A stretch of 64,000 nt of DNA from an uncultured Acidobacteriota bacterium (GCA_963809485.1 CAWEJX010000012.1:192001-256000), one strand, 5' to 3'; numbered from the stretch's first letter, positions 1 through 54,003 are shown. Numbers and translations are program-made. The notes: generated by a model from the sequence alone, not told the origin.

Positions 1-185
1 GGGCCGATTTCCAGAACATATTCAACCGGCTGGTCATTCCGGATCCAACGGCAACCAATGCCGCAGCGACCCAGAACGTTAATCCCGCCACGGGCCAGAC
101 CCAGTCCGGATTCGGATATATTGCAACAAACGGGACCGGAACAGCGCCTCGTAGCGGTATAATAGTTGCCCGAATTCAGTTCTAG
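1..185 (+). CDS. C-terminal end of a TonB-dependent receptor / outer-membrane beta-barrel protein (partial)
   Basis: Frame 3 reads ADFQNIFNRLVIPDP...SGFGYI...APRSGIIVARIQF*. The F-N..FG.I..PR...R.F pattern with terminal Phe is typical of acidobacterial TBDR C-termini. Confidence 0.75.
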   Translation, partial: ADFQNIFNRLVIPDPTATNAAATQNVNPATGQTQSGFGYIATNGTGTAPRSGIIVARIQF

Positions 186-305
186 GCCGCGCTGCAAAAA
201 TTATCTCTCGCTGTGGCGGCCGAGGAACGTTTCTCGAGGGAGAGCAAGTTCACTGAATGGATCGTCTTATTGGGACCGGCCAATAAAGTTACACGGCCAA
301 TACCC

Positions 306-396
306 AAGCCCCGGAGGGGCGTAACATGACAGCGCCCCGGGCGCAAGCCCGGGGTTAAGTGGATGGGAGAACGAAGCCCGGCAGGGGCGTCACATG
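306..396. repeat. REP-like palindromic cluster
   Basis: Two copies of aagccc(c)gg(c)aggggcgt(a/c)acatg flank the hairpin ccccgggcgcaagcccgggg; intergenic. Confidence 0.6.
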
Positions 397-548
397 GTTT
401 TTGGGTAGTGTCCCCTGTGATTTGCGGGACCCAATAATTAGCGCCTCAATCCTTCCGAAATGGTGTGCGTATTCACTCCGAATCAGAAAGAACAAAGGAC
501 ATGGACGATAACCGGGAAGGGATCTACGGGCCTGCCAAGGAGAAAAAA

Positions 549-2275
549 ATGAAGGGAATGGGTCGAAGTGCGAGAGGTGTTTTGTGGATAGCCGCCTTTA
601 TTTTCAGTTCCACGCTGCTGGCGCAAGAGGCAAAATTTGCGGTACTGAACCCGAGGGGCACACAACCGCCGATACGACTTGTCCCGATGGCGCCACGGTT
701 GGATACACTGGACGGCAAGACGATATACATCGTCAATGTGGGCTTTGGGGATACATTCCTGCCCGAAACACTGAAGGTGCTCGCGCAGCGATACCCCAAA
801 ACCAATTGGGTTCTCAAAAGGAAAATCGGAAGCTATTTTGACGATGATCCGAAACTATGGGCCGAAATCAAGGAAAAAGGGCATGGAATGATAATGGGAG
901 TCGGGCATTGAAGCACCTGTTCGCCGGCGGTCGTCGGCCATTGCCTGACAGTGGAAAGACTCGGTCTACCTACGGCTCCCGTGATCACGCAACGGTTCGA
1001 AGAACTGGTCAAGACCATTGCCTACAAAAAGGGGATGCCAAACCAACGATTTGTTTTTGTCCCCCATCCTGTCGCCGGCAGATCTCCCGAATTATGCCAT
1101 CGGTATATGGAAGGCAATGATCCGGTGACGAAAAAGCCTATCGTGGAGGAGTTTTTGGCGGCTCTGACAAAACCGCTGAATCCTGAGGAGAAAAAGACGG
1201 GATTTTTGCAGAGACCTCCTCGACCGAGGCTCATCGAACCGGATACAGCCGAAAACCTGCAGCGTCTCTTTGCAAAGAATGGGTGGACCGACGGTATTCC
1301 CATAGTCCTTCCGACCGAAGAAAGAGTGGCTTTGATGCTGAAGAACACGAGCCGCAAACCGGACGAGGTTGTCGGTACCATGCGCCCGTCGCCTCCCCAT
1401 GAGGCCTGGGAGTTCACCGTCGAAATGGTTGCCACGAATGCCGTAATGGCCGGTGCTAAACCGGAATATATTCCGGTGATTCTAGCCCTGGCTTCGACCG
1501 GAGTGACTTCACTTTTCAGTTCAACCACGTCTTTTGCGCGCATGGTTGTCGTCAATGGCCCTATCCGAGAACAGATCAGTATGAATTCGGGACTTGGCGC
1601 TATGGGGCCTTTCAATGAGGCCAATGCCACGATTGGACGAGCTTGGACCCTGATATCCAAAAATCTCGGTGGCGGAGGTACGCCGGGAGAAACCTACCTC
1701 GGCAGTCAAGGGAACAATCTTAATTACAACAATATTTGCTTTGCCGAAAGGGAGGACGCGCTTCCCGCCGGCTGGAATCCCGTTCACGTTCAAAAGGGCC
1801 ATAAGGCTGGAGAGAGCTACGTCAGCACCTTCACCGGCTGGAGCCTCATCAACTATGGCGGTTTTGCACTCCCGCACCATCAGTTTATCAAACGAATGCT
1901 GACCGGTTTGCTGGCCAGCGGGACCGGCTCCGGCAGCCAGGCCACTCTGTTGCTTGATCCGATTACGGCACGGGACCTCAGGAATGATGAGGGCTTCGAC
2001 ACAAAGGAAAAGCTAAGTGACTGGCTGATGAAGAATGGAACATCGCCCGCGCAGCAGTACTGGGCACGCCACTCCGATGAGCTGAAGAAAGGCAAAGAGG
2101 GGATCGAGCCCTTTGCGTCATGGCTGAAGTACCCAGAGGACGCCTTCATACCCGTTTCAAACTTCAGGCCGGAGACGCCGATCGAGATTATCGTTGTGGG
2201 GGGGAAACGAATGCTTTTCTGATGGCGGGGGATTTTCGTTATGTCTCGGGCGCCTCTGTGGATAAGTGGAGGTAA
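549..2275 (+). CDS. Exported UGSC-family-like selenoprotein, paralog 1 (Sec at UGA 909-911)
   Basis: ORFs 465-911 and 951-2222 are in the same frame, and read-through gives GVGH-U-STCSPAVVGHC. RBS aaggag before ATG 549, signal peptide, DGIPIVLPTEERV motif. A frameshift in the G-run at ~2200 restores the family end ...SVDKWR* at 2275. Confidence 0.88.
923..938 (+). promoter_or_regulatory. Bacterial SECIS-like hairpin (paralog 1)
   Basis: GCCGGC-GGTC-GTCGGC: 6-bp stem and GGUC loop, stem starting 11 nt after the UGA. Confidence 0.8.
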
Positions 2276-2400
2276 GGCTCGATTCGTTTGCGAACCAAAT
2301 TGTAATTGCGATCACGACTTCTCGGTGCAGATTTCATGGGGTCGCCTGCTTTTGACCGGGTAACGAGGTAGGAAACTGTTTATCAGCAAAGCAGCTGGAT

Positions 2401-2475
2401 ACGGAAGACACGGAGCAAGCGCGATCCACGGATAAAAACCCTGGCTTTTATCCGCGTTCTTCTGTGTCCTTCCGT
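2401..2475. repeat. Imperfect intergenic inverted repeat
   Basis: acggaagacacgga...ggataaaa-ccctggc-ttttatcc...tctgtgtccttccgt forms a long hairpin. Confidence 0.5.
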
Positions 2476-2505
2476 ATCCCTGCTTTTTCGCGATGGAGGC
2501 TTTCG

Positions 2506-3078
2506 TTGAATAATAAACAACTCTACTGCTTTTGGGCAGCTTCGATAATAGTTGCAGCCAGTCTAAGCCCGTTAGGCGCTCAAACCCCCGGTTCCTCACC
2601 GGCGGCCCCCGCGTCGACAGGCGTTACGATTACGGGAATCGTCGAATGCGGGCAGGGCTACACTTCCCACGAACTGTATGACATGAAAATTACCGTGACG
2701 GATGTGGTGCGCGGTGAAGCAGCATGGATGCGGATCAAGGAAGCGAGTCCATCAAACAAAGCTGCGGAGGCGGGATTCGAGTATGTCCTGGCCCGCGTGA
2801 AATTTGAATATTATGCGAGAGGAACACCCGGCCTGTGTATCCATCAACTCAATCCACAGCAATTCAGCGCTGTTTCTTTGGAAGGCCAGGATTATCAGAT
2901 TGCCCAGGTAGTGCTTCCGAAACCGGACTTGCGCAAAGCCATGAAGTCGGGTGAGACAGTCGAAGGTTGGATTGCGTTTTCTGTGTCTCAGCAGGACAAA
3001 GGTCCTCTCATGACATATTCTGCCGATCAGGGTGGGGCGATCGAGCACGGCGGAGCGAAGTGGTTTTTGCTTCGTTGA
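2506..3078 (+). CDS. Secreted DUF4352-like (Ig-like fold) protein, paralog A
   Basis: ggagg RBS before TTG 2506, signal peptide, motifs VECG..YDMKI..VVRG..A..RIK..GFEYVLARVKF and SGETVEGWIAF; paralogous to 5096, 12284 and 13205. Confidence 0.7.
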   Translation: MNNKQLYCFWAASIIVAASLSPLGAQTPGSSPAAPASTGVTITGIVECGQGYTSHELYDMKITVTDVVRGEAAWMRIKEASPSNKAAEAGFEYVLARVKFEYYARGTPGLCIHQLNPQQFSAVSLEGQDYQIAQVVLPKPDLRKAMKSGETVEGWIAFSVSQQDKGPLMTYSADQGGAIEHGGAKWFLLR

Positions 3079-3294
3079 GTTTGGGCCTGTGATAAGGCAT
3101 GCTGGGCAGGATGACAGCTTGGAAGTCTCAAGGCAGCCGAAGGCGTCGACCTGAGGTGAATGGAATGCGGCCATTTTGGGGAGAGCGGATTTGTCCTGCT
3201 CCTATCCATGCGAGAGCGAGACCAATGGCGTAGCTAACAAAATCCTGAAGCACTCAACAATTCGTTATATGCTGATTTAAGGAGGACTAGAGCA

Positions 3295-5023
3295 ATGAAA
3301 AGCCGAATTTGTTGTTTTTTGGCCGGAATGTTTTTAGCAGCCATTTTTCTGGTCGGGAATGCCATTGGCTGCGGAGAAGCCAAGGTCACGGTAGTAAATC
3401 CCTCGAGGCACACCTCCCCCGATACGCCTGGTGCCGATGGCGCCTCGTTTGGATACCCTGGACGGCAAAACGATCTATGTCATTAACATCGGGTTCGGGG
3501 ATACATTCCTGCCTGAAGTGCAGAAGGTGATGGCCGAGAAATATCCCAAGACGACCTGGATATTCAGGAGAAAGGCGGGAAGGGACTATTTCGACGACGA
3601 TCCGAAGCTTTGGGCCGAAATAAAGGAAAAAGGCCACGGAATGATTATGGGCGTGGGCCATTGAAGCACGTGCTCGCCGGCGGTCGTCGGCCACTGTGTA
3701 ACGGTAGAAAGATTGGGTGTGCCTACTGCGCCAGTTGTTACTCAGAGATTTCAAGAACTGGTGAAGAACTATTTCCTGGAAAAAGGGAATGCCGAAGCAG
3801 CGGTTTACCTTTATTCCGCATCCTGTCGCCGGCAGGCCCCCTGAGTTGTGTAATCAATATGTAAGGGGCAAGGATCCGTTGACTGGAAAACCGATCGTTG
3901 AGGAGTTTGTCGCTGCGCTGACAAACCCGCTGACTGCGGAGGAAAAGAAAACCGGATTCCTGATGAGGGATCCGCAACCACGGCTGTTAGAGCCAAACAC
4001 TCCAACGGCCCTGACAGATCTCTTTGAGAAAAACGGCTGGACCGACGGGCTTCCTATAATACTTCCCACCGAAGAGAGAGTCGCCAATATGCTTAAAGGC
4101 ACCAGCCATAGGCCGGATGAGATTGTGGGCACCATGCGTCCCTCTCCGCCCCATGAGGCCTGGGAATTCAACGTGGAGATGGTTGCCGCCAATGCCGTGA
4201 TGGCTGGAGCAAAACCGGAGTATCTTCCCGTTATCCTTGCATTGTCATCGACAGGCGTAACCTCGCTTTTCAGTTCTACAACATCTTTCGCGAGGATGGC
4301 GGTTGTCAATGGGCCTATCATTACGGAAATCGATATGAATGGCGGGATAGGAGCCATGAGTCCCCTGAACAAGGCCAATGCCACGATCGGAAGAGCGTGG
4401 ACATTGTTATCGAGAAATCTTGGGGGAGGAGCCATTCCCGGGCAGACTTACCTGGGGAGCCAGGGAAACAATCTCAACTACAACAATGTTTGTTTCCCTG
4501 AAAAAGAAGACAAATTGCCTGCGGGATGGAAACCCTTATCCGAGCAGAAAGGGTTCAAGCACGGGGAAAGTGCTGTCAGCACGTTTACCGGATGGGAAAT
4601 CGTTCATGGGGCCCTCGGGATGGGGGGTAACAAAGAAGGGCTTGCCCGGGCAGTAGCCCGATATTCCACGGGTGCGTATCGGCAGGTTACCTTGTTGCTG
4701 GATCCAATCGTGGCCAGTGATTATAAAGAGCTTCGACGGATTCCAAACCAAGGAAGCGCTCAGCGAATGGCTCCTGAAAAACACTCCTTCACCCGCTCAG
4801 GGGTACTTGCAGAGATCACCCCGATGAGGTGAAACAGGCCAAATCGGGTGTTGAGCCCTTTGCGACATGGTTGAAATATCCGGAAGGAGCACTCATCCCG
4901 GTATCAAGCCTTCGGCCTGAGGTTCCTGTCGAGATAATCGTGGTGGGAGGTGAGACAAATGCCTTCATGCAGATGGGGGATTTCAGGCACGTATCGACCG
5001 CCTCAGTGGACAAGTGGAGATAG
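3295..5023 (+). CDS. Exported UGSC-family-like selenoprotein, paralog 2 (Sec at UGA 3662-3664; several frameshifts)
   Basis: Fragments 3295-3486, 3431-3664, 3789-4832 and 4829-5023 join into a collinear homolog of paralog 1. Reads GVGH-U-STCSPAVVGHC and ends SVDKWR. Frameshifts near 3410, 3770 and 4735-4830. Confidence 0.8.
3676..3691 (+). promoter_or_regulatory. Bacterial SECIS-like hairpin (paralog 2)
   Basis: GCCGGC-GGTC-GTCGGC at the same spacing after the UGA. Confidence 0.8.
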
Positions 5024-5095
5024 AGGCAAATAGTCATGACCGGGAAAGAGGCAGACAATGCCTCTTTCCCATTTCATACAAAAGGAGAGGTTAAT

Positions 5096-5666
5096 ATGAA
5101 ACACAGGATTTCTGCTCTATTAGCTTGTTTGATTTTGGCGGCCTTTGCTCGGGTTGGATACCGCAGCAGCACAAGGTCTGTCTCCCTCCAATGCGGCGCC
5201 GATCGGCACGTCGATAAAAACTCAGGTGGAATGCGGGGAGCGAGCAGGTTCCATGGAGCCCTACGATGCAAAGATTGCTGTTCTCCAGGTTTTGCGCGGC
5301 AAGGAGGCATTGGATCGCATAAAGGCGGCAAACCCCTCCAGTCAGCCTCCGAAGGCCGGCTTTGATTATGTTGCTGCGCGCGTGGCGTTTCAGATGAATG
5401 CGATTCTGGCGCCGGGAAACAAGACTTTTGAATTGGCAAGAAAGATGCAGTTTGTTGCGCTCACGGCAGATGGGAACGAGCAGGAGCCTCCTTCGGTGAG
5501 TCCACCTTCGCCGGAGCTTCATCGGACAGTGCGCTCAGGTGAGTCTGCGGAAGGCTGGATTGTTCTGTTGGTGGAACAGTCGAATAAGAAACCCGTGATG
5601 TTCTTTGATCCTGCGGCTGGCGGTGCCATGGGAGGCGGTAAAGTCCTGTTCTTCCAGCTTTACTGA
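5096..5666 (+). CDS. Secreted DUF4352-like protein, paralog B (frameshift near 5150)
   Basis: RBS aaggag, signal peptide MKHRISALLACLIL... then shifts into ORF 5145-5666 with VECG, VLRG, RSGESAEGWIV and a C-terminal FQLY. Confidence 0.7.
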
Positions 5667-5870
5667 GTACCGGGGTTCGGTCTGCAAATCCATCGAGGCT
5701 CTTAGGAGAGATCCGGTCCAATCCGACAGGATGTCCTCCAACGCAATGCTCCTCTGTTTCTGGATATTTTCCAGCGAAATGACATTCGTTTCCGGCATGA
5801 CCGTCCATACCTACACTCGCTGTCCGATCATGGCGGCGGTTTTATGTCTCAGAGATGTTGCATTTCCTGA

Positions 5871-6152
5871 GTCAGGCACCTCCGGTAAAGCCGGAGGCTT
5901 GAAAGATTGGAACCGCTCAAAGCGGTTGGAGGAGTTCCGCCGGTCTTGAACGCTGACTTACGCGGGCAAAAGCCGATGAGGCGCTCCGCGCTGGCCCCTG
6001 CGGGGATCGGAAGCGCCTCATCGGCTTTTGCTCGCCGACCCTCGCCGAACAAATCGGCGTGTGTCAGCGCTTTTATCAGCGTTTCTCAGCGTTTCAAAAT
6101 ACCGAGCTGTCAAACTCTTTGAGTCTCCCGGCAGAGCCGGGGGGTTACCAAT
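5871..6152. mobile_element. Non-autonomous IS200/IS605-like element, copy A
   Basis: Begins gtcaggcacctccggtaaagccggaggc and ends gagtctcccggcagagccgggggg ttaccaatg (subterminal hairpins); near-identical to 17020, 25840 and 33650; no transposase ORF. Confidence 0.75.
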
Positions 6153-6288
6153 GTAATTATTTCGGAAAAATGCCGCTGCCTGAATTTTTTTGGCAGAAAA
6201 GCAAAGAAGTCCTGGATATAGGATTTATCCACGAAATAGGATATCAGTTGTCCGCTCATGGCAGAACAGGCTGGTCAGGGAGGATGCG

Positions 6289-7908
6289 ATGAAAGCAAGA
6301 AAAGGTATTTTATTGTTTCTTTCGGGTGTGAGCACATTGGTATTCATCCTGCTTGCCTCTAAAGCAGCACAGGCAGAAAACATCCGGGCGCTCGATCCTC
6401 GCGGCATCCCGCCGACTGTGGAGAGGATTCCGCTGAGTCCGCGTCTGGCCGGCATCAAGGGCGCCAGGATCTACATTGTGATGTCCTGGCCGACCAATTC
6501 CGCTTTCGATAGTGTCGTCAAAGATCTGGTGCTGCTCCTGAAGGAGCGTGGCGCCAAAGAAGTAACCATCAAGCAGCGCAATGCCCGCTATTCCGAGGAC
6601 GATCCGAAACTATGGGATGAGATGAAGCAGATGTGCGATGCATTTATGTATGTCGCGGCACCGTCCTCTTCGACTACGTCCTATGCTTTTCAATGGAGCG
6701 CCAAACTTGAAAAGATGGGCCTGCCTGGCACCGTTGTGAATTTCGACGATCTGAACAGCGTCGGCGACACTACAAGCAGCCGATGGGGAGCGATGCTGCG
6801 CCGTTCGTCCTTCGTTTATCCACCCGAAACCATGAATAAGCAGGCTTATCCTGAGGCATTATCCCGTGCGATCGATAATCTGACCAGGCCCTTGACTCCG
6901 GAGGAAAAGGCCACCGGCGTAATGCAACCCAAGCCGCGGCCGGAAATTTACGTCTCCGGTGATTTTGATCAAATTCAAAAATCGTATTACGACGCCGGGA
7001 TGACGGATGGGTTGCCGATCATTCCGCCAACAGCCGAACGCGTGGCTGCGATGCTGAAAGGCACAGGCCATAAGCCCGACGAAGTTGTTGCCCAGGCATT
7101 GATGCCTGAAGGGCTGGGCGTTACCGTTAAACACGTGGCGATCAATGGCGTAATGGCCGGATGCCTGCCGGAGCAAATGCCGGTTTTGCTTGCGACTATT
7201 GAAGCGTATCAAAAGAACAATTTGAATTCGGTTTTGCGGTCAACAAACCCTTTTTCCTTCATGCAGGTCGTGAACGGACCGATCGCCCAGCAGCTGAAGA
7301 TGAATAGCGGCACTGGCGCGCTCAGCCCCGGCAATCAGGCAAACGCCTCAATGGGGCGCGCTCTGCGGCTGTTCATCCTCAATCTCGGGGGCGGCGTGCC
7401 CGGAGTCAACCTGATGGCCGTAATAGGCAATGTCTCGAGTTATTCCTTTATGTTTGCGGAGAACGAAAAGGAAAGCCCATGGGAACCGCTCAGCGTCAGT
7501 CTCGGGTACCAGAAGAACGATAGCACTCTCACATTTTTTTTGGGAGGCTGGGCGCACTCCGGTAATTACGGACCTGGCTTTGCCGGTGAGGTTGCGCTTG
7601 ATAGCGTTGCGCAGGACATGTCACCGTATCAAATGACCTCCGGCGCGACTGTGATTATTTCTCCCAAGTTCGCGCAAGATCTCCAGAGACGTGGAATGAC
7701 CAAAGCTGACGTTGAAAGCTATTTACAGAAGCATTCCACACGCGCGCCGCGCAAAGGCCGGCCAGCCGAAGCCGCTCAAAGCGGGCCGGTGCCGGTGTTT
7801 CCGGAAGGCACCGTCAAGATCATTGTGGCCGGCGGAGATGCCAGTTCTATGATGCAGGCGTGGAGCATGTATCGCCCGATAATCGTATCGATCGACAAAT
7901 GGCGGTAG
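6289..7908 (+). CDS. Exported UGSC-family-like paralog 3, lacking the redox motif (SxxT instead of UxxC)
   Basis: Single uninterrupted ORF with signal peptide, LDPRG..P, YSEDDPKLW, DGLPIIPPTAERV and a SIDKWR end. AAP-SSST aligns without gaps to VGH-USTC. Confidence 0.85.
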   Translation: MKARKGILLFLSGVSTLVFILLASKAAQAENIRALDPRGIPPTVERIPLSPRLAGIKGARIYIVMSWPTNSAFDSVVKDLVLLLKERGAKEVTIKQRNARYSEDDPKLWDEMKQMCDAFMYVAAPSSSTTSYAFQWSAKLEKMGLPGTVVNFDDLNSVGDTTSSRWGAMLRRSSFVYPPETMNKQAYPEALSRAIDNLTRPLTPEEKATGVMQPKPRPEIYVSGDFDQIQKSYYDAGMTDGLPIIPPTAERVAAMLKGTGHKPDEVVAQALMPEGLGVTVKHVAINGVMAGCLPEQMPVLLATIEAYQKNNLNSVLRSTNPFSFMQVVNGPIAQQLKMNSGTGALSPGNQANASMGRALRLFILNLGGGVPGVNLMAVIGNVSSYSFMFAENEKESPWEPLSVSLGYQKNDSTLTFFLGGWAHSGNYGPGFAGEVALDSVAQDMSPYQMTSGATVIISPKFAQDLQRRGMTKADVESYLQKHSTRAPRKGRPAEAAQSGPVPVFPEGTVKIIVAGGDASSMMQAWSMYRPIIVSIDKWR

Positions 7909-8141
7909 CGGCAAGAATATCTTGAATGTTGTCAGCCCGGAAGCAGAGAAGGCTTGCAAAATCAGGGCAGACGGCACAATGTATGCCCTCCAAGGGTAGG
8001 CCGCACAAAGCGCGGCCAACCCTTTGCTGTGGCGCCCCGTTGGGGCCCTGCCCCCACCCTGGGGGACTTATCCGCCCTTAACCGCTCGAAGCCAACCTCG
8101 CCGCAAAGGCGCAAGCAGGCTTACGCACTCCAAAGACAGCT

Positions 8142-9872
8142 TCACCGCCATTTATCGATAGAGGCGCTGGCAACATGGCTGAAATCCATGGCCATCCAGT
8201 AGGGATTGGTTCCCCCTCCGACCACAATCACATTGATGGGCGGATTCCCTCCCTTCCGCCTGACAAAGGGAGATACGGGCAAAGCAGCGCTCTGCGGTAG
8301 CTTCAGCCACGATGCAAACGGTTCAACACCGGCTTGAGCCTTTTTAAGATCGTCAGGACGGCTGGCCCAATAGTGCCACGCGGGCCAGGTTGCGTTTTTC
8401 TCGAGCCACTCGGCCAGCTTCTCTTTGGTATCGAAGCCTTCGACTTCCTTCATATCTCTCGCGGTCACTGGGTCGATCAGCACGGTCGCCGTACTTCCCC
8501 ACCCGCCTCCGCTCATGAAGAAACTCATCAGCGCATTCTTCATGATCTCATGATGCTGTACCGGAAGGTATGCGCCGTAATCGAGAACGCTCCAGCCGCT
8601 GAATGCGCTGACGACGCTCTCTTGCGGCTTGAAGCCTTTCTGAACATGCAAGGGCTGCCAGCCTGCGGGCAGATCCTCTTCCGTTTCCGGGAAACAGATA
8701 TTATTGTAATTCATGCTGTTGCCCTGGCTTCCGAGATACGTCTCGCCAGGAATGCCGCCTCCTCCGAGATTCTTTGAAATCAGCGTCCACGCTCTGCCTA
8801 TGGTTGAGTTTGCTTCATTAAACGGGCCCATGGCCCCGATCCCCGAGTTCATCTTTATCTGCTGCGCGACAGGCCCGTTTACAACGACCATCCTCGCGAA
8901 AGAGGTGGTCGAGGTGAACAGGGAGGTGACTCCCGTCGAGGAAAGAGCCAGGATAACGGGAAAGTACTCGGGTTTTGCACCTGCCATGACCGCATTTGCG
9001 GCGACCATCTCAACTGTGAATTCCCACGCTTCGTGTGGAGGGGACGGCCTCATCGTGCCGACTGTTTCATCGGGCTTATGACTCGTTCCCTTCATCATCT
9101 CAGCGACCCTTTCCTCGGTGGGCAGCTCTATGGGCAGTCCGTCTGTCCACCCGTTGTCGTTGAAAAGCTTCTTCAGGTTGTCCGGAGTGTCGGGCGAAAG
9201 CAATCGCGAACGAGCACCGCGCGACACAAACCCGGTTTTCTTGTCGTCGCCGGACAAAGGCTGGGTAAGGCCTGCAATGAACTCCTGAATCAGCGGCTTG
9301 CCCGTTACCGGATCGTTACCTTCGAGATATTTACGGCAGACCTCGGCAGGTCTTGCGGAGATGGGGTGTGGGACGAAAGCGAATCGCATCCCGGGCATCC
9401 CTTTTTTGAATGCGATGGTTCTTACCAGATCGGTGAATCGCTGAGTGATGATAGGCACGGTGGGGATTCCGAGCCTCTCTACCGACAGGCAATGGCCGGC
9501 GACCGCCGGCGAGCATGTGCTTCAATGACCTATGGCCATGATCATGCCGTGCCCCTTTTCTTTTATCTCTTGCCAGAGTTTGGGGTCGTCGTCGAAATAA
9601 CTGCCGATCTTTTTCTTATAAACCCAGTTTGTTTTCGGGTAATGCGCAGCCATGACCTTCTGGATTTCCTGGACAAAGGGTTCCGTCAAAGGATAATTCG
9701 TGTCAACGATGTAGATTGTTTTTCCATCCAGGCTGTCCAGGCGCGGGGCCATGGGGATCAGGCGAATCGGAGGCTGTATGCCTCGCGGATTCAGCACTGA
9801 AATTTTTTGAGCATCTGCTGCAAATGAAGCGCAGGCGATGAGAATCGCCAGAAAAGGCATGTGCATTTTCAT
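8142..9872 (-). CDS. Exported UGSC-family-like selenoprotein, paralog 4 (Sec at UGA 9524-9522)
   Basis: ORFs 9522-9929 and 8142-9458 are in frame and read AIGH-U-STCSPAVAGHC. Signal peptide MKMHMPFLAILIACASFAADA; ends SIDKWR; about 576 aa with no frameshift. Confidence 0.92.
9495..9510 (-). promoter_or_regulatory. Bacterial SECIS-like hairpin (paralog 4)
   Basis: Minus strand reads GCCGGC-GGTC-GCCGGC, a fully Watson-Crick stem at the same spacing. Confidence 0.82.
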
Positions 9873-10097
9873 AGGAACCTCCGAACCCCATTTTCGCACA
9901 AAACAGTAAAGCAGCCATGCAGATTTCACAGATTTTACGAAAGACCCCGGAAAACAAGGCCCGCTTGCTTCATAGGGGCAATCTGTGAATTCTGCGGTTG
10001 TCTTTAGCTTTTGGAAAAATCAGGGGATTTGGGCCGGCCCGGCACTAGTATGTGGGTAGGCTGCAAATTTCTATATCGATAGTGCATTTTCATAGTA

Positions 10098-10265
10098 AAA
10101 TGGGGCTCGCGCAAAATGCAGCGACACCCGCAGGGCATTATTGTGTCCTTTGCGAAAATCACCTGAAACAGACCCAGTCGGGAATTGAACCTTTCGTGTC
10201 CTACTTGAAAGCCGGGAACATGGCATCACAGCCGGTATCGTGTTTCATTCGCAGACCTCCATCAG
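10098..10265 (+). pseudogene. Decayed C-terminal relic of another UGSC-like paralog
   Basis: LAQNAATPAGHY...LKQTQSGIEPFVSYLK...QPVSCFIRR aligns to paralog 4 LEKNATWPAWHY...LKKAQAGVEPFASWLK...LPVSPFVRR. Confidence 0.7.
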
Positions 10266-10420
10266 GCGCCCCCGCGTCAGCGCGGCATATGGCCGCCGGT
10301 ATGGAATGGCGGAGCAGGATTCGGGCTTGTGTAATAGGAAATCTGATTTACGGATCAGTGTCTGATCTGCACGAATGGTCGAAAGGGACGTAAACAATTC
10401 ATCATGAAAGGAGAACCGGC

Positions 10421-12229
10421 ATGGACCCTGCCGAGAATGAAAAGAAGAGCACGAGTAGAAGAGCATTTTTCAAGGGCATAGCCGCCGGCGCCGCAGGTGC
10501 AAGTTTGTTGAGTCCGTTTGCCCGGGAAGCCGCGCCCAGTTCCAGTCCGCAGAAAGCAAAGGAGGAGTTGATTACGGTTTTTAACCCTCTCGGACAACCT
10601 CCTCCCCTGGCTTTACTGCCTTTGGCGCCTCGCCTCGATACCCTAAAAGGCAAAACAATCTATGTCGTGGATACTAAATTCCCGGCCAGCAAGACCTTTT
10701 ATGAAGAATTCGTCAGAATTCTCAAGGAGAAATATCCCGATACGACCTGGATTCCGAGAGATAAGATAGGAAGTTATTTTGACGATGATCCAAAACTGTG
10801 GGCCGAAATCAAGGAAAAGGGCCACGGAATGATCATAATGGTAGGTCACTGAAGCACCTGTGCGCCGGCGGTCGCCGGTCATGCGCTAACCGTGGAAAAG
10901 CTGAAAGTGCCCGCAGTGCCCATAATCACCCAGACTTTTAACCGATCTGTCAAGAATGCTGTTTACGTCAAGGGAATGCCCCTCATCCGATTTGCCTTTG
11001 TCCGCCACCCCGTCGCATATACGCCGCTCGCTGACTGCAGGGCGGCCATATTGGGCAAGGATCCTGTGACCGGCAAACAGGTTCTTGATGAAGTTGTTGC
11101 GGGGCTGACCAGTCCTTTGACTGCGGAGGAAAAGAAGACGGGTTTCATAGAAAGGCCGCGGGACAGGTTTGTAAAGCCCGACACGGCCGACAACCTGCAG
11201 AACCTGTTTCGCGACAGCGGATGGACGGACTACCTGCCGATCATTCTTCCGACGGAACAGAAAGTGGCCGAGATGCTCAAAGGCACCAGCCACATGCCCG
11301 ATGAACCGGTAGGCGAGATGCGCCCATCTTCTCCTCACGAAGCGTGGTCCTTCGACGTACGGAAAGTTGCAATCAATGCGGTGATGGCGGGCGCAAAACC
11401 GGAATTTCTCCCGGTAATTCTGGCGATTGCATCCTCGGGGGTCACCTCGCTCTTCACTTCTACAAATTCCTTCACCTCCATGGTGGCCGTAAATGGACCC
11501 ATACGCAAAGAGATAAACATGAACATGGAGATAGGCGCGTTGGGTCCCTTTAATCACGCTAATGCAACCATTGGAAGAGCCTGGACACTGATGTCGAAGA
11601 ATCTGGGCAATGGAGGTGTTCCCGGGCAGAACTACATGGGCAGTCAAGGGCAAGGCCATAGCTACACCAATCTCTGCCTTGGAGAAAAAGAAGAGCGTTT
11701 GCCGCCAGGGTGGAAACCCTTTCATGTACAGAAGGGATTCAAGCCGGAAGAGAGTGTTGTAAGCATGTTCGACGGCTGGAACTGGTCCAACGTTGGGGGA
11801 TTTGAGAGTACTAAGGATCGATCCATCAAACGGTTTTTCGAAAATAATACGCAATGTTGCGGCGCCACCCTGGTTTTAGACCCACTCGTGGCCGACATGC
11901 TCTACAAGGAACTCGGGTACAAAACCAAGGAGCAGTTTCAGGACTGGCTGAACAAGAGCGTTGGAACGGTCAAAGATGATTATTGGGGGGCGATCTCCGG
12001 CCAGGGCGGAGCTGAAGGACCCGGCGGCCGTCGAGCGAAAGAGTATGAACAGGCCAAAGCAGGGGTTGAGCCCTTCGCAACATGGCTGAAATATCCTGAA
12101 GGAGCCGTACTCCCGGTGTCCAGAAATGTGCAGGTCAATATACTCGTGACTGGAGGAGAGACGAATCCCTATTGGCAGGGTGGGAGTCTCAGATACATCG
12201 CAAGTGCATCCGTCGACAAATGGAGGTAG
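10421..12229 (+). CDS. Tat-exported UGSC-family-like selenoprotein, paralog 5 (Sec at UGA 10850-10852)
   Basis: ORFs 10421-10852 and 10892-12229 are in frame and read MVGH-U-STCAPAVAGHA. Twin-arginine SRRAFFK; ends SVDKWR; about 602 aa. Confidence 0.92.
10864..10879 (+). promoter_or_regulatory. Bacterial SECIS-like hairpin (paralog 5)
   Basis: GCCGGC-GGTC-GCCGGT (closing G-U pair) at the same spacing. Confidence 0.8.
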
Positions 12230-12283
12230 GCGGGATGTGCAGGGGGGGCACGGCTCCCCCTGGTTTCCTGAGGGGGAGATCCC

Positions 12284-12853
12284 ATGAGAACAAAGATGAT
12301 TTTGGGTATGCTGGCAGCGCTGGCTGCCTCGATGCCCGCTATGCGGGCACAGTCACGAGAACCCGGTTTCTCTCCATTGAATCCCGCGCAGGTTGGAACC
12401 CGCCTGGGAACTGTTATCGAATGCGGCTTCGGCTATAGTCCCCATGAAAAATATGACGTCAAATTGACTCTTCTGGAAGTTCTGCGCGGAGATAAGGCAT
12501 CGGAGCGGATTAAAGCAGCAAGCGCATCCAATCAACCTCCGAAGGCTGGGCTCGAGTATATTCTTGCCCGCGTCAAGTTTGAGTTTTTTGCCAAAGGGGC
12601 GCCGGGGAATTGTGTTCATGAACTGAGACGGGAAGAATTTGCGGCCTTCTCCGCCGATGGGCAAGAATACGAGGCCGCCATGATTGCACCTCCCCAGCCG
12701 GGGCTCAGCGCGAAGCTCAATTCAGGCGATTCCTTCGAGGGCTGGCTTGCCTTCCAGGCGCCGCAAGGCGGGAACAAGGCATTGCTGAGGTTTGTCGCCA
12801 GCGTCGGAAGCGCCGTCGAACAGGGAGGGCAAGTGTGGTTTCAGCTTTATTGA
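12284..12853 (+). CDS. Secreted DUF4352-like protein, paralog C
   Basis: Signal peptide; IECGFGYSPHEKYDVK..VLRG..GLEYILARVKF..GNCVHE..SGDSFEGWLAF..WFQLY. Confidence 0.75.
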   Translation: MRTKMILGMLAALAASMPAMRAQSREPGFSPLNPAQVGTRLGTVIECGFGYSPHEKYDVKLTLLEVLRGDKASERIKAASASNQPPKAGLEYILARVKFEFFAKGAPGNCVHELRREEFAAFSADGQEYEAAMIAPPQPGLSAKLNSGDSFEGWLAFQAPQGGNKALLRFVASVGSAVEQGGQVWFQLY

Positions 12854-12861
12854 ATGGGCCC

Positions 12862-13171
12862 TAGCTAGTTTCTGTCGCGAAACTCGGTTCTTGCGAGGAA
12901 ACCGGATTTTTCAACAGTCGATAGGATATTTGATATTATGTAGAAGCCGGGAATTGGAGCCAGGCCGCGTAGCGGTCAGCTGAGTTTAGCCAGGCCTTTT
13001 AAGGCTTGGATCTAAAGGAGTTAGGTTTTCCGTCGCCTAGCAACGGTTGAATCTCAGGCGGCGCTACGCGACGCGCTATTCTCAATACCATGATTCCCGG
13101 CCTTGAAAGGCCGGGCTAAAATCATAGTGCCGCTATGCGGCGCAAACCAGTTTCGCGACAGAAACTAGCTA
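12862..13171. mobile_element. MITE-like element with 23-bp perfect terminal inverted repeats and internal REP-like hairpins
   Basis: tagctagtttctgtcgcgaaact (12862-12884) is the exact reverse complement of 13149-13171; internal cccggccttgaaaggccggg and cgtcgc..cgctacgcgacg palindromes. Confidence 0.7.
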
Positions 13172-13204
13172 TGGAAACCCAATCCAAAGCAAGGAGAAAC
13201 AACC

Positions 13205-13765
13205 GTGAAGCTCAGAAGAACACTCGCATGGCTTGTTCTGGCATACCTGGTTACAGCTCCTGCCTTACTGCAGTCGCAAATACCAGGCTACTCCCCGCTC
13301 AGCCCGGCAGCCGTCGGCGCCCGGGTGGAGACCGTGATCCAATGCGGCGGAGAGCCTTGTGATGTGAGAATCTTCCTTCTCGAGGTTGTGCGCGGCGAGA
13401 AGGCCTGGCAACGTATCCAAGCGACAAATTCGTCCAATACTCCGCCGGAAGGCGACCTAGAATATGTCCTTGCGCGTATGAGGTTCGAGATGTCTTCGAG
13501 GACTCCGGGAAGCAAGAGCTACCCGATAAGATCGGGACAGACAGGGCAGTTTTTCGCTTTCTCGGCAGAGGGCCAACCCTATGAGACGCCTGCTCTGGTG
13601 TTGCCCAAACCGGAACTGGAGGGCTTGCTCCGTTCCGGCGAATCGATTGAGGGCTGGATTGCTTTCCGTGTACTCAAGAGCGAAGCCAAGCCGCTGATGA
13701 GCTTTGATCCGGCATCCGGGGCGGCTAAAAGCCAAGGCAAGCTCATATGGTTCCGGCTCCAATAA
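13205..13765 (+). CDS. Secreted DUF4352-like protein, paralog D
   Basis: aaggag RBS, GTG start, signal peptide, IQCGGEPCDV..VVRG..LEYVLARMRF..RSGESIEGWIAF..WFRLQ. Confidence 0.75.
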   Translation: MKLRRTLAWLVLAYLVTAPALLQSQIPGYSPLSPAAVGARVETVIQCGGEPCDVRIFLLEVVRGEKAWQRIQATNSSNTPPEGDLEYVLARMRFEMSSRTPGSKSYPIRSGQTGQFFAFSAEGQPYETPALVLPKPELEGLLRSGESIEGWIAFRVLKSEAKPLMSFDPASGAAKSQGKLIWFRLQ

Positions 13766-14150
13766 ATAGCGGTTCCGGCAAGTCAACGAAAGATGAAATG
13801 ATTCGGCGGCCGGTGAGGACTTTCAATTCGCATCAAGAGGAAAAACACTGAAAAGGCGAAGTGGAAGAAAAGCCTGCACGGCGAGAAAGGCAATCGAATG
13901 GGATGTCCGCTCGTTGCGGGGCGCGGATGCACATCCTCTGCGCGATAAATCCTCCCTGGCGCCATTCGGAAAATTTTGAATTGCCTGGGATTGCCTTCCA
14001 AACCGCCGCCTGTTTTCCGGGTTCTGACATCACCTTAATGCCGGCTGTGTCGCCCGGCTGAAGCGAAGCAGATGAAAAGAGACCTATGGATGAGTGCATG
14101 GAATTTATCGGATTCACCAACAGATTTCGCAATGGAAAGGAGAAATAACG

Positions 14151-15836: not shown

Positions 15837-16100
15837 AGCGAATTCTCGGGCAGATAAGTCCGCTAGGCCAGCCTTAGGCGAAAGACCGATGTGGCAATGA
15901 TCCGGCTGGCGCAAGCAAAACAGGTCCCGTCCAGCAGGCGGGACCTCGGAGCCTGTCCGAGAATTGGGAGGGGCCACGTTCCTGGCTTGGCGGGGGCAGA
16001 TGTAGGGCGGCGCAGCGGCCCAGCCCCATACGCGCGATCCCTCCTCATTCTCGGGCAGGTTCCCGGTGCCGGATATAATCCTGATGATGGGAGAATACCG

Positions 16101-16985
16101 ATGCGCATGCGAAAAACCAAACTCTGGATTATCACGTCACTTTTCCTGGGCGCGTTCACCGCTGCGCTTGGCACAGCTCGCGCAGCGGATACGAATTGCA
16201 GTCGCGAGTGTCTGCAGAGTTTCATCGCGAAATACCTGGATGCCATGCGGGCCCATGATCCCGGCTTGCTGCCCTGTTCCGCGGGGCTGAAGTTTACCGA
16301 GGATTCCGAGCCGATGAAACTGGGCGACGGGCTGTGGAAGAGCGTGTCCGGCATTCGGCCATACCGCCGTGACGTTCTGGATGTCGCTCGGGGAATCGCC
16401 GCGTCCAAAGTTGTTGTTGAGGAAGCGGGCTCTCCGGTTCTTCTGCAGCTTAGACTGAAAGTCGTCAATCAAAAAATCACCGAAGTCGAAACAATGACGG
16501 TTCGCAACCAGAAAGAGGGAGGGCTCTTCAATCCGGCCGCGCTGCAGACTTCGAGCCAGGGGATGTCATTCGTTCCCGGGCGGGCGCAAATCGCCTCCCG
16601 TGAGGAAATGGTCAAGATAGCCGAAATCTACCCCGCCGGTCTGAAGATCGGGAGCTTCGTGACAGTGGACGCACCCTTCGGTCCGGAGGCATACCGCATC
16701 GAGAACGGAGTAATTACGGCCGGCTCCGGCTGCACGCGGCCGGGATGCGAGAACATCAAGACGCAGGTCAATATCAAACACCCCGGGATCACCTACCATG
16801 TAGCGGCCGTGGATGAGGATCTCGGCATTGTTTTGATGCGTCTGGATTTCGGCGAAACAAGCGCGTATGGACCCGGCATATCGCGGGTCTTGTGGGAGGA
16901 GTTCAAAATATACGGCGGCATGATCCACGCAGTCGAAGCATTTATGCGCTATATACCTGCCAGCAAGGGCTCCGGCTGGGACTGA
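16101..16985 (+). CDS. Secreted hypothetical protein
   Basis: Signal peptide from ATG 16101, then CSRECL..YLDAM..HDP..LKFTE; well-formed ~294-aa ORF. Confidence 0.75.
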   Translation: MRMRKTKLWIITSLFLGAFTAALGTARAADTNCSRECLQSFIAKYLDAMRAHDPGLLPCSAGLKFTEDSEPMKLGDGLWKSVSGIRPYRRDVLDVARGIAASKVVVEEAGSPVLLQLRLKVVNQKITEVETMTVRNQKEGGLFNPAALQTSSQGMSFVPGRAQIASREEMVKIAEIYPAGLKIGSFVTVDAPFGPEAYRIENGVITAGSGCTRPGCENIKTQVNIKHPGITYHVAAVDEDLGIVLMRLDFGETSAYGPGISRVLWEEFKIYGGMIHAVEAFMRYIPASKGSGWD

Positions 16986-50444: not shown

Positions 50445-52256
50445 CTATGGAGCCGTGCATGCGTAGGAAGATGCTGCATCAACAGAACCGCTCATGTACC
50501 TGGGATACATCGGATAGGAACACATCGGCAGACTGCGGCTCCCTGCTGTAACAGTCACAGACATCGAGGGCGCCAAATTTTTCTCAACCCAATCCACCAG
50601 CAGGCTGAGCCGGCTGAACGTGTTGGGAATAGGAACTGCCGGAATGGATTTTCCGTCGCCATCCGCAGCATAGTTCGTCCCGCTTAAACCGTGTCCGGTC
50701 TGGGGAAGCACGAAGAAGCGGGCAAACCTATCCACCTTTTTCCGTCTCATTTTCCTGATGACGGATTGGAAATAGTCCAACTGTGCGCCCGGGGACGCAA
50801 GCGTGTCATTTGTGCCAATGGAGACAATGAGTTTTCCTCCGCGCTTATAAAATTTATTCAGATCCGGATTCGTGGAATCCAGCCACCGGGAGATCTCCCT
50901 TCTCCTCGCATCAAACGCGCCGCCCTCGACATAGTCCAGCGGATTGGCCTTCAGGTTTTTCATCAGGAATCCGGTAACTCCCAAAGCTCCCAGATGGCTG
51001 TGCAACGGAGCGTCGTCTCCAGCCCCTTCCTGGCCACGATACCGGCTGGGCACAATCAATCCGCTGCCGGACGGATCGGTGTTCGGCACCCACATGCCGA
51101 ACGACTTGACTCCATTCGCCAGCGGCTTCGCGAATGGATACCGGCTGTAGACAAATCGCAGTGTTGAAATCTGACCATCGGTGAGGCACGCATTTGCGCT
51201 CGTGTCGTCAGGGTTCGGGTCGATATTGTTCGGGCAGCGCCTGTTTTCCCAGGGATTGCTGCCGCGATGCGCCTGTGTGCGATCAAAAATCGCGCGGCAT
51301 GCCATGTAGTTGTTGATGATTCCATCAGCCAGCCCGTCCAGATTGTCGCATTGACGCATAAACTCGCCGCGGATCGAATTCACCTTGGCCGGCGGCACCC
51401 AATGGGCCAGGGGCTTTTCCTGGATTCGAATCAGTTCGGGAGCAAGCATCAGCGAGGAGAAGTTTACAATCGGGACGTTGGCCGCAATTCCGTCATAGTC
51501 CGCCGGATACCTTTGAGCCACTGTGAGAGCTTCCCTCCCGCCTTGGGATGAGCCGAAGAAGTAATTGAACCGGTGCTTCTCCCCATAGATTCTCCCGATC
51601 AGAACCATGGCTGCATCATGAGTCTTTTTCAGCTGCATGTAGCCGAGGTTCTTCATCGCCTCGTCGTTCAGAGCCCAATCATCGCCTGAACCTGAAGGCG
51701 GTGCTCCTCTCTGGCTCATGCCACCTTGCGGCGCTGCACCCGGATCTCGGGCCATGCCGCGTCCGAAACCCGCACCGAAAACCATCTGGTGTCCCGAATC
51801 ACTGCCGTAGGTGGCGAATCCGAGCTGAATCAGGGATGTCCCCGGCCCCATGTCTACGCCGCCCAGCAGATTTGGGATCATACCGTTCATGCCGCCGCCG
51901 CCAAGTTGGGCCGCTCGCCGGCTCCAGGACGCCGGAAATACGACCTGGAAATTGATTGGTTTGGCGTTGGGATCCACAGGCGCCATTGCGCCCTTCACGC
52001 TGCAATAGGCCGGATTCGCTCCTGCTGCGACAGTCCACACTGGAGCATTGAGCGTCACTCCGGAAACCGGTTCACCGATGGCCGAGGCGGGAATATCGGA
52101 TCCCAGTTTTGCTGCCGTGCAATCCGATTCCGTTATGACTTTATCCTCCGCCGCAGCCGGTAGAGTCCTCGATTGTGCTCCGCTCAAGGCGCTTGAACTC
52201 ATCAGATAAAGCAGGCCGATTGCCAGAAGGGATGCTTTTCTCATGTTTCCATACAT
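50445..52256 (-). CDS. Tannase/feruloyl esterase family hydrolase (Cys-less active-site variant)
   Basis: YGSDSGH, YFFGSSQGGRE...AQRYPADYDGI, CD.LDG..DG, RGGKLI, GHG, LPMCSYP. Confidence 0.9.
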   Translation of the reverse strand: MYGNMRKASLLAIGLLYLMSSSALSGAQSRTLPAAAEDKVITESDCTAAKLGSDIPASAIGEPVSGVTLNAPVWTVAAGANPAYCSVKGAMAPVDPNAKPINFQVVFPASWSRRAAQLGGGGMNGMIPNLLGGVDMGPGTSLIQLGFATYGSDSGHQMVFGAGFGRGMARDPGAAPQGGMSQRGAPPSGSGDDWALNDEAMKNLGYMQLKKTHDAAMVLIGRIYGEKHRFNYFFGSSQGGREALTVAQRYPADYDGIAANVPIVNFSSLMLAPELIRIQEKPLAHWVPPAKVNSIRGEFMRQCDNLDGLADGIINNYMACRAIFDRTQAHRGSNPWENRRCPNNIDPNPDDTSANACLTDGQISTLRFVYSRYPFAKPLANGVKSFGMWVPNTDPSGSGLIVPSRYRGQEGAGDDAPLHSHLGALGVTGFLMKNLKANPLDYVEGGAFDARRREISRWLDSTNPDLNKFYKRGGKLIVSIGTNDTLASPGAQLDYFQSVIRKMRRKKVDRFARFFVLPQTGHGLSGTNYAADGDGKSIPAVPIPNTFSRLSLLVDWVEKNLAPSMSVTVTAGSRSLPMCSYPMYPRYMSGSVDAASSYACTAP

Positions 52257-52361
52257 CGTTGTTTCTCCGGTTCTAATCCCCTGCTTTTTCAAATTGAACT
52301 GGCGGATTATCGATGAGAAATCAGCAGGGGATGGTTCCTCATAACTCCTGGAATTGTGCGG

Positions 52362-53975: not shown

Positions 53976-54003
53976 GGGTACCCCCTTTTCTATGCCGATG
54001 CTA

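Follow-up and report, generated by a model that had tools for sequence, protein, structure and literature searches.

An array of predicted exported selenoproteins of the UGSC type in an uncultured Acidobacteriota bacterium

A 64,000-nucleotide stretch of DNA from an uncultured Acidobacteriota bacterium (GCA_963809485.1 CAWEJX010000012.1:192001-256000), here called the window, carries between positions 549 and 13765 an array of five paralogous genes, four of which close under translation table 11 at exactly the same codon, a TGA in each case. The locus raises the question of whether this codon ends the proteins or is read as selenocysteine (Sec, U), and of what a protein continuing through it would do. 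The copies at 549, 3295, 6289, 9872 (minus strand) and 10421 are numbered paralogs 1 to 5, and coordinates without prefix are those of the window. Judged from sequence comparison, the four TGA triplets are almost certainly Sec codons, and it is highly probable that the genes specify real Sec proteins composed of a signal peptide, a UGSC domain and a large C-terminal domain (C-domain). For the locus as a whole, exported Sec proteins in which a redox module drives the C-domain are likely to be the best explanation.

A shared TGA codon and its sequence context

The four frames close directly behind a Gly-His pair, at 909-911 (+), 3662-3664 (+), 9524-9522 (-) and 10850-10852 (+), and all four give GH-U-STC once the TGA is translated as U. 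Past this codon, paralogs 4 (8142-9872, -) and 5 (10421-12229, +) are intact and open through the common C-terminus ending in DKWR. Paralog 1 (549-2275, +), made up of a signal peptide, a UGSC domain with GH-U-STC and the C-domain, is open beyond the TGA up to a run of seven G at 2197-2203, and its final 25 codons lie in the frame of the open reading frame (ORF) 2120-2275. In paralog 2 (3295-5023, +) about 35 codons are open beyond the TGA before single-base insertions intervene, as seen against the intact ortholog in a related metagenome-assembled genome (MAG; locus L021); insertions lie near 3399, 3767, 4734 and 4809. Paralog 3 (6289-7908, +; Pfam UGSC E-value 1.3e-7), which is full-length and free of TGA, aligns without gaps over the junction, with Ser standing for U and Thr for C; it is not present in the syntenic locus L021. 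The initial annotation had described the common halt at G-H-TGA-S-T-C, the continuation of paralogs 1, 4 and 5 and the gapless UGA-free copy, and these observations were all reproduced.

The genome to which the window belongs (6.04 Mb in 21 contigs, 95.7% complete, 7.3% contamination) contains the full Sec machinery that the initial annotation had proposed to search for, i.e. selA, selB and selD, all scoring above curated cut-offs, and a tRNA-Sec (70.6 bits; ARAGORN anticodon TCA). The selD gene (G000:C8:80982-81905) includes one in-frame TGA, and SelD itself would accordingly be a selenoprotein. A tblastn search of the genome with paralog 4 returned 56 high-scoring segment pairs (HSPs) covering the site, and in 42 of them a stop codon occupied it; this codon was TGA 42 times out of 42, with TAA and TAG both at zero. 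Since one of the 42 loci, on contig C13, is doubtful and a separate profile search added two further candidates, the genome is estimated to hold 41-44 Sec genes of the family. The four copies of the initial annotation compare with roughly 42 Sec copies in the genome. The doubtful locus (G000:C13:46038-46043) is a weak match (68 bits) in which the motif holds two in-frame TGA codons in a row and a third stop occurs as well, and is probably a decayed copy.

Outside this genome, at 19 loci in MAGs of Acidobacteriota, Desulfatiglandales and Burkholderiales/Betaproteobacteria, the site was likewise TGA in 22/22 HSPs, and one TGA was present in 149 of the 150 matches listed among 40 relatives. TGA is also the commonest stop elsewhere in the genome (839 of 2037 long frames) and terminates paralog 4, so a change of the genetic code is not indicated. 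Among the 150 best representatives of the family, 68 cover the site and 27 of these have Cys there, mostly as CxxC (21/27, including GH-C-STC), although some of these Cys homologs could be annotated Sec forms, because a U in the source may have been entered as C. Within the gene, conservation is highest just past the TGA (S-T-C-S-P-A-V).

A short hairpin follows each of the four TGA codons, at 923-938 (+), 3676-3691 (+), 9510-9495 (-) and 10864-10879 (+) in paralogs 1, 2, 4 and 5. It consists of the arms GCCGGC and GYCGGC (GUCGGC in paralog 1) around the loop GGUC, and starts at nucleotide 15, i.e. after an 11-nt spacer. The same 11-nt spacing is found in Escherichia coli fdhF. Third-codon positions of the four copies vary where they are unpaired, and those in the stem or loop are either invariant or changed so that pairing is preserved (G-C to G-U). 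In other subfamilies this position is taken by stems of other sequence (GUGGUGGG/CCCACCAC, AUCGGC/GCCGAU and GUGUUCA/UGAAUAC) with the loops GUU, CGUGA and GUC. No hairpin was found at the homologous place of paralog 3.

The mean folding energy of the segment +8 to +50 was -12.5 kcal/mol at the 42 Sec sites of the genome, compared with -6.95 kcal/mol for the corresponding segment of 13 non-Sec paralogs (p=6e-5) and -9.7 kcal/mol in 168 windows elsewhere in the same genes (p=5e-5). By a simple rule, which asked for 5 or more perfectly paired bp from a start at nucleotides 12-19, a hairpin was detected at 29/42 Sec sites, in 146/588 control windows and in 1/11 non-Sec paralogs. All 29 loops contained G, and nucleotide 15 was the most frequent start (14/29). 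SelB would be directed to the UGA by this short G+C-rich hairpin with its G/U-containing loop, beginning 11 nt downstream, in the manner of a Sec insertion sequence (SECIS). Three tandem paralogs at G000:C4:341962-347500 read QSW-U-GAAT, with Ala replacing the resolving Cys, and have a hairpin of their own (GUGUUCA/GUC/UGAAUAC). Machinery, hairpin, conservation and Cys homologs agree in supporting the earlier assignment of the UGA to Sec.

Architecture of the proteins and the possible role of the U-x-x-C pair

Each gene would make one exported protein of ca. 60 kDa in three parts, namely a signal peptide (general secretory type in paralogs 1-4, twin-arginine in paralog 5), the UGSC domain and the C-domain. 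Hydrophobic signal peptides with A-x-A-like end sites were recognised in paralogs 1-4, and paralog 5 has the twin-arginine sequence SRRAFFKG with a sub-threshold match to the TAT model TIGR02811 over residues 5-45, in agreement with the export signals predicted initially. Genome-wide, signal-like N-termini were assigned by a simple heuristic rule to 42 of 55 copies.

The N-terminal ca. 150 residues matched the Pfam UGSC family PF24696 with E-values of 1e-18 to 1e-27, at 85.1 bits in paralog 1, 94.7 in paralog 4, 67.3 in paralog 5 and 32.4 in paralog 3 (gathering threshold 25), which corroborates the UGSC-type domain suspected at the outset. Window proteins scored 66.5, 70.7 and 46.8 bits against the NCBIfam equivalog NF041046, below its cut-off of 125 bits, and none of the 49 matches in the genome exceeded it (best 101 bits); kinship with the UGSC family is upheld by the Pfam model and not by the equivalog. 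The window copies have U-S-T-C in place of the motif U-G-S-C, with the U-x-x-C spacing retained. The Pfam match of paralog 4 (residues 26-181) and the domain modelled for it both straddle the TGA, which is at residue 117.

Mature paralog 4, the template for structure modelling, was predicted by AlphaFold2 from a 51-sequence alignment with a mean predicted local distance difference test score (pLDDT) of 93.1 and a predicted template modelling score (pTM) of 0.92. Residues 26-190 were modelled as a parallel alpha/beta/alpha domain in which Sec stands behind a beta-strand and just ahead of the next helix, so that a UGSC-superfamily alpha/beta domain would carry U-x-x-C at the start of a helix. 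When compared with the Protein Data Bank (PDB), all of the 50 matches listed for these residues were flavodoxin-, CheY- or Rossmann-like chains (Z 8.3-10.8), and no thioredoxin-fold (Trx-fold) match was returned for the window proteins by Pfam or NCBIfam. By these listed matches the modelled N-domain looks flavodoxin-like and not thioredoxin-like, and the thioredoxin-like context of the initial annotation found no support in them.

The C-domain, which comprises the last ca. 365 residues, was modelled alone with a pLDDT of 92.9 and would have a fold with no convincing solved relative. Its best Foldseek match in the PDB was a class I fumarate hydratase at E 0.026 and a template modelling (TM) score of 0.23-0.27; a wide structural comparison with VIA reached at most Z 6.0 across 86 residues, and the whole model gave E 1.7e-3 at best in Foldseek; none of these three results is convincing. 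Sequence searches of the PDB returned nothing with the protein as query and only E>0.3 with a profile, no match to the C-domain was obtained from Pfam (E up to 10) or NCBIfam (E up to 1), and an ESM Atlas search retrieved only the family itself. The invariant residues of the C-domain are polar or Gly/Pro, in the motifs WTD, PTE, NGP, AN..GR, ENE and DKWR.

The main reason for reading U-x-x-C as the redox module of an enzyme is that the C-domain accompanies, in cis or in trans, thiol or selenol modules. A protein of another Acidobacteriota genome (G118) shares this C-domain (31% identity over 288 residues, E 5e-32), and where the UGSC domain would stand it has an AhpC/TSA-type Trx-fold domain with C-P-T-C. 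Only 38 bp past this fusion lies a gene for a stand-alone UGSC selenoprotein, AD-U-GSC, which passes the NF041046 cut-off with 149.3 bits, and upstream in the same locus an AhpC/TSA (peroxiredoxin-like) selenoprotein with W-U-P-Y-C is fused to DsbD_N; the latter gene, with its in-frame TGA, occupies positions 25-1050 (+) of locus L080 (G118:C2:2996000-3004500). A C-domain gene paired with a stand-alone UGSC gene was found in four genomes of the genus of G118 and in one genome of another family, and a second fusion of AhpC/TSA with the C-domain in another lineage.

On this basis the family could consist of extracytoplasmic selenol/thiol-dependent oxidoreductases, most likely reductases, a mechanism for which we see about even chances. 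The U-x-x-C pair would cycle between the selenol/thiol and selenenylsulfide states and would act as the redox module of the C-domain, which would bind or convert the substrate. The genus would have diversified the family into dozens of paralogs with different specificities, and copies with neither Sec nor Cys would have lost the redox chemistry. Three such paralogs, with P-S-S-S-T-T at the motif, are located at 6289-7908 in the window, at G000:C20:468171-469718 and at C20:509929-511500; two of these have a U-S-T-C copy a few kb away, a recurrent juxtaposition of Sec and non-Sec copies.

Several observations, together with the caveat on Cys homologs given above, weigh against parts of this interpretation. 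Among the 120 best homologs, the Sec position is occupied by Leu or Met in all 98 full-length sequences and by Cys in none, and 13 paralogs in the genome itself have S, A, G, T, L or M there; because of these variants, the C-domain can exist without a redox pair and its function may not depend on one. The C-domain has neither a conserved Cys nor a recognised cofactor motif, and no structural relative that would name a reaction. A perfect hairpin by the simple rule is missing at 13 of the 42 Sec sites, no Rfam SECIS family matched positions 1-14000 at E-values up to 10, the signal peptides are heuristic calls, and two of the four Sec copies of the window are frameshifted in the assembly.

The U-x-x-C could instead be a ligand site, in which case the proteins would serve in the periplasm to bind, chaperone or sense a soft metal, a metalloid, or selenium or sulfur species, with the C-domain delivering or recognising the ligand. 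U/CxxC at a helix start is also known to bind metals. A recent review lists UxxC in a cation-transporting ATPase and C/SxxU in a mercuric transport protein (PMC13188914). The subfamily of the window has a His ahead of Sec, and paralogs 1, 2 and 4 a second H-C 10-11 residues further on; the signal-like N-termini, heuristically assigned, would suit such a role, as would the many paralogs without the pair, which are expected if binding is optional. The flanking His and the later Cys are, however, not conserved across subfamilies, metal transporters do not recur among the neighbouring genes, and the gene neighbourhood in G118, where a Trx-fold CxxC sits on the same C-domain beside a canonical UGSC protein and the peroxiredoxin-like UxxC-DsbD_N protein, is one of thiol redox chemistry. 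Ligand binding is considered unlikely.

A second alternative takes the UGA as a true stop, so that each locus would yield two products, a short N-terminal fragment that is exported and a C-terminal protein initiated on its own. Gene callers do split the genes in this manner, as the initial annotation had foreseen, with 22 of the 120 best database homologs and 53 of the 150 best representatives beginning just past the site, as is expected for UGA-split gene calls, and a GTG or ATG is available 14-41 codons beyond the TGA. Such a stop would nevertheless cut one Pfam domain, and one modelled alpha/beta domain, mid-way, and the C-terminal piece would be left without a signal peptide. Neither would it account for a codon that is invariably TGA (42/42 in the genome and 22/22 at other loci, where TAA or TAG had been named initially as evidence to the contrary), for the complete Sec machinery, for the gapless passage of TGA-free homologs through the site, or for the conservation of frame and sequence, which is highest past the TGA. 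In three DNA runs the summed contig depth rises 3- to 10-fold in the UGA/hairpin bins 853-1004 and 3589-3740 relative to their neighbours; many relatives or paralogs match these bins at 92% identity or above, and the bins represent the most conserved DNA of the gene. A true stop is very improbable.

Decay or assembly error, which would make the in-frame stops marks of pseudogenes, can draw on the assembly indels in paralog 1, paralog 2 (four insertions) and one partner gene and on a tannase gene in pieces, but it is hardly conceivable, since the indels are not common to independent contigs, the TGA is found in all relatives examined, among them a genome in a single contig that has 34 matches, random decay would not give the same stop type at one codon 42 times, and TAA/TAG at the site or TGA-less relatives were looked for and not seen. 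For the frameshifts themselves, the comparison over 549-5100 drew on the contigs of four metagenome runs, which stem from close relatives (92-99% alike). Among these contigs, one from an RNA library (record 25, 732-1183) spans the UGA of paralog 1, RNA contigs being no proof of transcription. An additional G at 2197 was present in all four runs, and the extra bases of paralog 2 were missing from every covering run (3399 in 3/3, 3767 in 3/3, 4735 in 4/4), as they are from the intact ortholog in L021. Since the contigs from other runs are free of them, the frameshifts of paralogs 1 and 2 are private to the assembly, as errors or as strain-specific decay, two causes that contigs of relatives, with at most 0.31 of words matched, cannot separate.

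Partner genes, neighbourhood and distribution of the family

Secreted DUF4352-like ORFs follow paralogs 1, 2 and 5, as stated initially, at 2464-3078 (+; partner A), 5145-5666 (+; partner B) and 12284-12853 (+; partner C, 55 bp past paralog 5), and a further copy, partner D, is at 13205-13765 (+). The signal peptide of partner B is located in a different frame (ORF 5036-5365), and this gene is therefore also regarded as frameshifted in the assembly. The Pfam gathering threshold for PF11611 (25.9 bits) is not reached by partners A (22.1 bits, E 1.9e-4) and C (24.4 bits, E 3.8e-5), the other two copies gave no match, and NCBIfam (E up to 1) returned nothing on the partners; a database protein 96% identical to a partner carries a precomputed PF11611 label. 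Eleven partner copies are present in the genome, eight of them on the strand of a family gene and no more than 500 bp downstream of it, and a large protein collection contained only 30 homologs. The Cys of an E-C-G motif is retained in 26 of 29 partner sequences, so the earlier description of the partners as Cys-containing applies to most of them and is not strict. Outside the genome the partner was detected only in the syntenic locus L021, the 4-kb flanks being free of it at the 18 remaining loci; on these sequence data, the pairing of a family gene with a DUF4352-like gene is confined to one subfamily.

Upstream of the array, positions 1-185 (+) form the 3′-end of a TonB-dependent outer-membrane receptor gene (whole ORF G000:C12:188469-192185), which matches OMP_b-brl_4, CarboxypepD_reg and TonB_dep_Rec_b-barrel. 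The initial annotation had linked the array to this receptor, but TonB receptors are not enriched near family loci (4 of 31 within 6 kb, p=0.39). The remainder of the window is a catabolic island of Tat-exported FAD_binding_2 flavoproteins, two HGD-D subunits, a coenzyme A (CoA)-transferase, esterases, tannases, S15 peptidases, and transporters of the major facilitator superfamily (MFS) and ATP-binding cassette (ABC) types. Near family loci, xanthine dehydrogenase (XDH) large subunits (8/31), FAD_binding_2 proteins (6/17), carboxylesterases (6/14) and a family of 364-residue proteins (7/25, within 6 kb) are 2-4 fold enriched, and CoA-transferases are found in 1/16 cases. Because ten tests were made and the loci are clustered, this enrichment is weak evidence, and it is all that the suggestion of an array feeding the adjacent island rests on.

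The 364-residue family, with 25 loci in the genome, is represented in the window by the ORF 15891-16985 (+), which has no Pfam or NCBIfam match. Tannase/feruloyl-esterase homology extends over three ORFs at 50448-54173 (-), and the regions of the tannase profile matched by 52365-52814 and by 53136-54173 are not the same, indicative of another gene in pieces in the assembly. Two intergenic matches to the Rfam Acido-Lenti-1 RNA, at 307-354 (-; 34.4 bits) and 13096-13142 (+; 28.5 bits), lie on either side of the array, both below the gathering score of 37.

In total, 59 merged family loci were identified in the genome, with 18 on contig C12, 16 on C4 and 11 on C20. All 24 genomes searched from the same genus had 9-34 matches at E<=1e-10, the highest number being from a single-contig 6.9-Mb genome. 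Only two of 16 genomes from other families of the class had a match, one weak match each, and an even sample of the phylum gave 1-3 matches in 12 of 150 other genomes. A database-wide profile search returned 8058 cluster representatives at E<=1e-3, of which 1770 remained at E<=1e-30, and the nearest full-length homologs were from Chloroflexota/Dehalococcoidales and had no signal peptides. Other subfamilies have the motifs U-D-G-C, U-G-T-C and U-G-A-A. Firmicutes-type relatives carry Cu_amine_oxidN1 domains, which were counted toward export. The representatives P0216, P0217 and P0271 (845-1254 residues) read G-C-G-L-C at the motif and contain Cu_amine_oxidN1 or pentapeptide repeats, and further representatives of 709-741 residues consist of the C-domain plus extra regions with no assignment. 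The host represents a genus, probably of the Acidobacteriota, that is encountered in metagenomes from wetlands and soils, and the two sub-threshold Acido-Lenti-1 RNA matches are part of the ground for this assignment.

The results offer a way into the function of UGSC proteins through three leads, a two-domain architecture with a confident model, a "Rosetta-stone" linkage of the C-domain to both Trx-fold and canonical UGSC modules, and natural Sec, Cys and redox-dead variants for comparison. They also expose an annotation problem, as gene calling turns dozens of genes in each genome into pairs of hypothetical proteins, and widen the picture of selenoprotein-rich bacteria and of the cellular site at which selenoproteins act.

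Relation to known selenoproteins

The closest known relatives are the UGSC proteins (Zhang, Fomenko and Gladyshev 2005; Zhang and Gladyshev 2008), described in the texts on this family as selenoproteins of no known function and "likely" Trx-like (PMC2398784; PMC1976440). The likeness includes the N-domain (PF24696), Sec in U-x-x-C at the homologous place, the excess of Sec over Cys forms, and the lack of a known function. In the Global Ocean Sampling (GOS) data, 255 Sec and 21 Cys sequences are reported for UGSC (PMC2398784), the family is listed among the most abundant predicted selenoproteins of aquatic metagenomes (PMC2398784, PMC13188914), and the entry in a 2026 review presents it as still uncharacterised (PMC13188914). 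The proteins described here differ in having U-S-T-C, in scoring below NF041046 and in always being part of a protein of ca. 560-670 residues with signal peptides, and their N-domain, as modelled, resembles flavodoxin/CheY in contrast to the literature view of UGSC as likely Trx-like. The family itself is known, and it is the variant that appears new, i.e. U-S-T-C, exported, always fused and expanded, with a C-domain that swaps UGSC for a Trx-fold; the scale, in that single genomes of one genus carry dozens of Sec genes, and the location appear, from sequence, to be what is new. A fusion "UGSC/Unknown_1" is mentioned in the 2008 paper (PMC2398784) and may already be the one described here; a full-text literature search found no paper on UGSC expansion or on selenoprotein-rich Acidobacteriota.

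GrdB and PrdB of the glycine, sarcosine, betaine and D-proline reductases (PF07355) offer an analogy only, in that they combine a U-x-x-C module with a separate substrate-binding part. In these enzymes Sec attacks the bound substrate and Cys resolves the adduct. The window proteins differ in that no PF07355 match was obtained in their Pfam scans, in the absence of a pyruvoyl proprotein partner and in being exported. For PrdB, the GOS table gives the motif as U-x-x-C (PMC2398784). With ResA/TlpA/AhpC-TSA-like and DsbA-like oxidoreductases the family shares export and a C/U-x-x-C at a helix start, and in other Acidobacteriota a Trx-fold CxxC replaces UGSC on the same C-domain; the N-domain of the window proteins differs from these in its parallel-sheet alpha/beta/alpha arrangement and in the missing Trx matches noted above.

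In number of Sec genes, 41-44 of the family plus SelD, the genome is comparable to bacteria listed for their large selenoproteomes, i.e. Syntrophobacter fumaroxidans with 39, Desulfosediminicola with 46, the Olavius delta-1 symbiont with at least 57 and a Methylomirabilota MAG with 63 (PMC9312934, PMC12013277, PMC13188914); the deep-Sep table includes one Acidobacteriota genome, with 3 selenoprotein genes. Should the family indeed be a set of periplasmic selenoenzymes, selenium-dependent extracytoplasmic redox chemistry would be a major overlooked trait outside the classic anaerobic selenoprotein-rich clades. The known selenoprotein-rich bacteria, which are anaerobic and of the Deltaproteobacteria type or symbiotic, draw on many families, whereas here one family supplies nearly all. 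The genus, of soil and wetland Acidobacteriota, may tentatively be credited with one of the largest bacterial selenoproteomes known, nearly all of it from a single exported family, in the form of a periplasmic selenoenzyme toolbox in which a UGSC module would drive a catalytic domain of unsolved fold.

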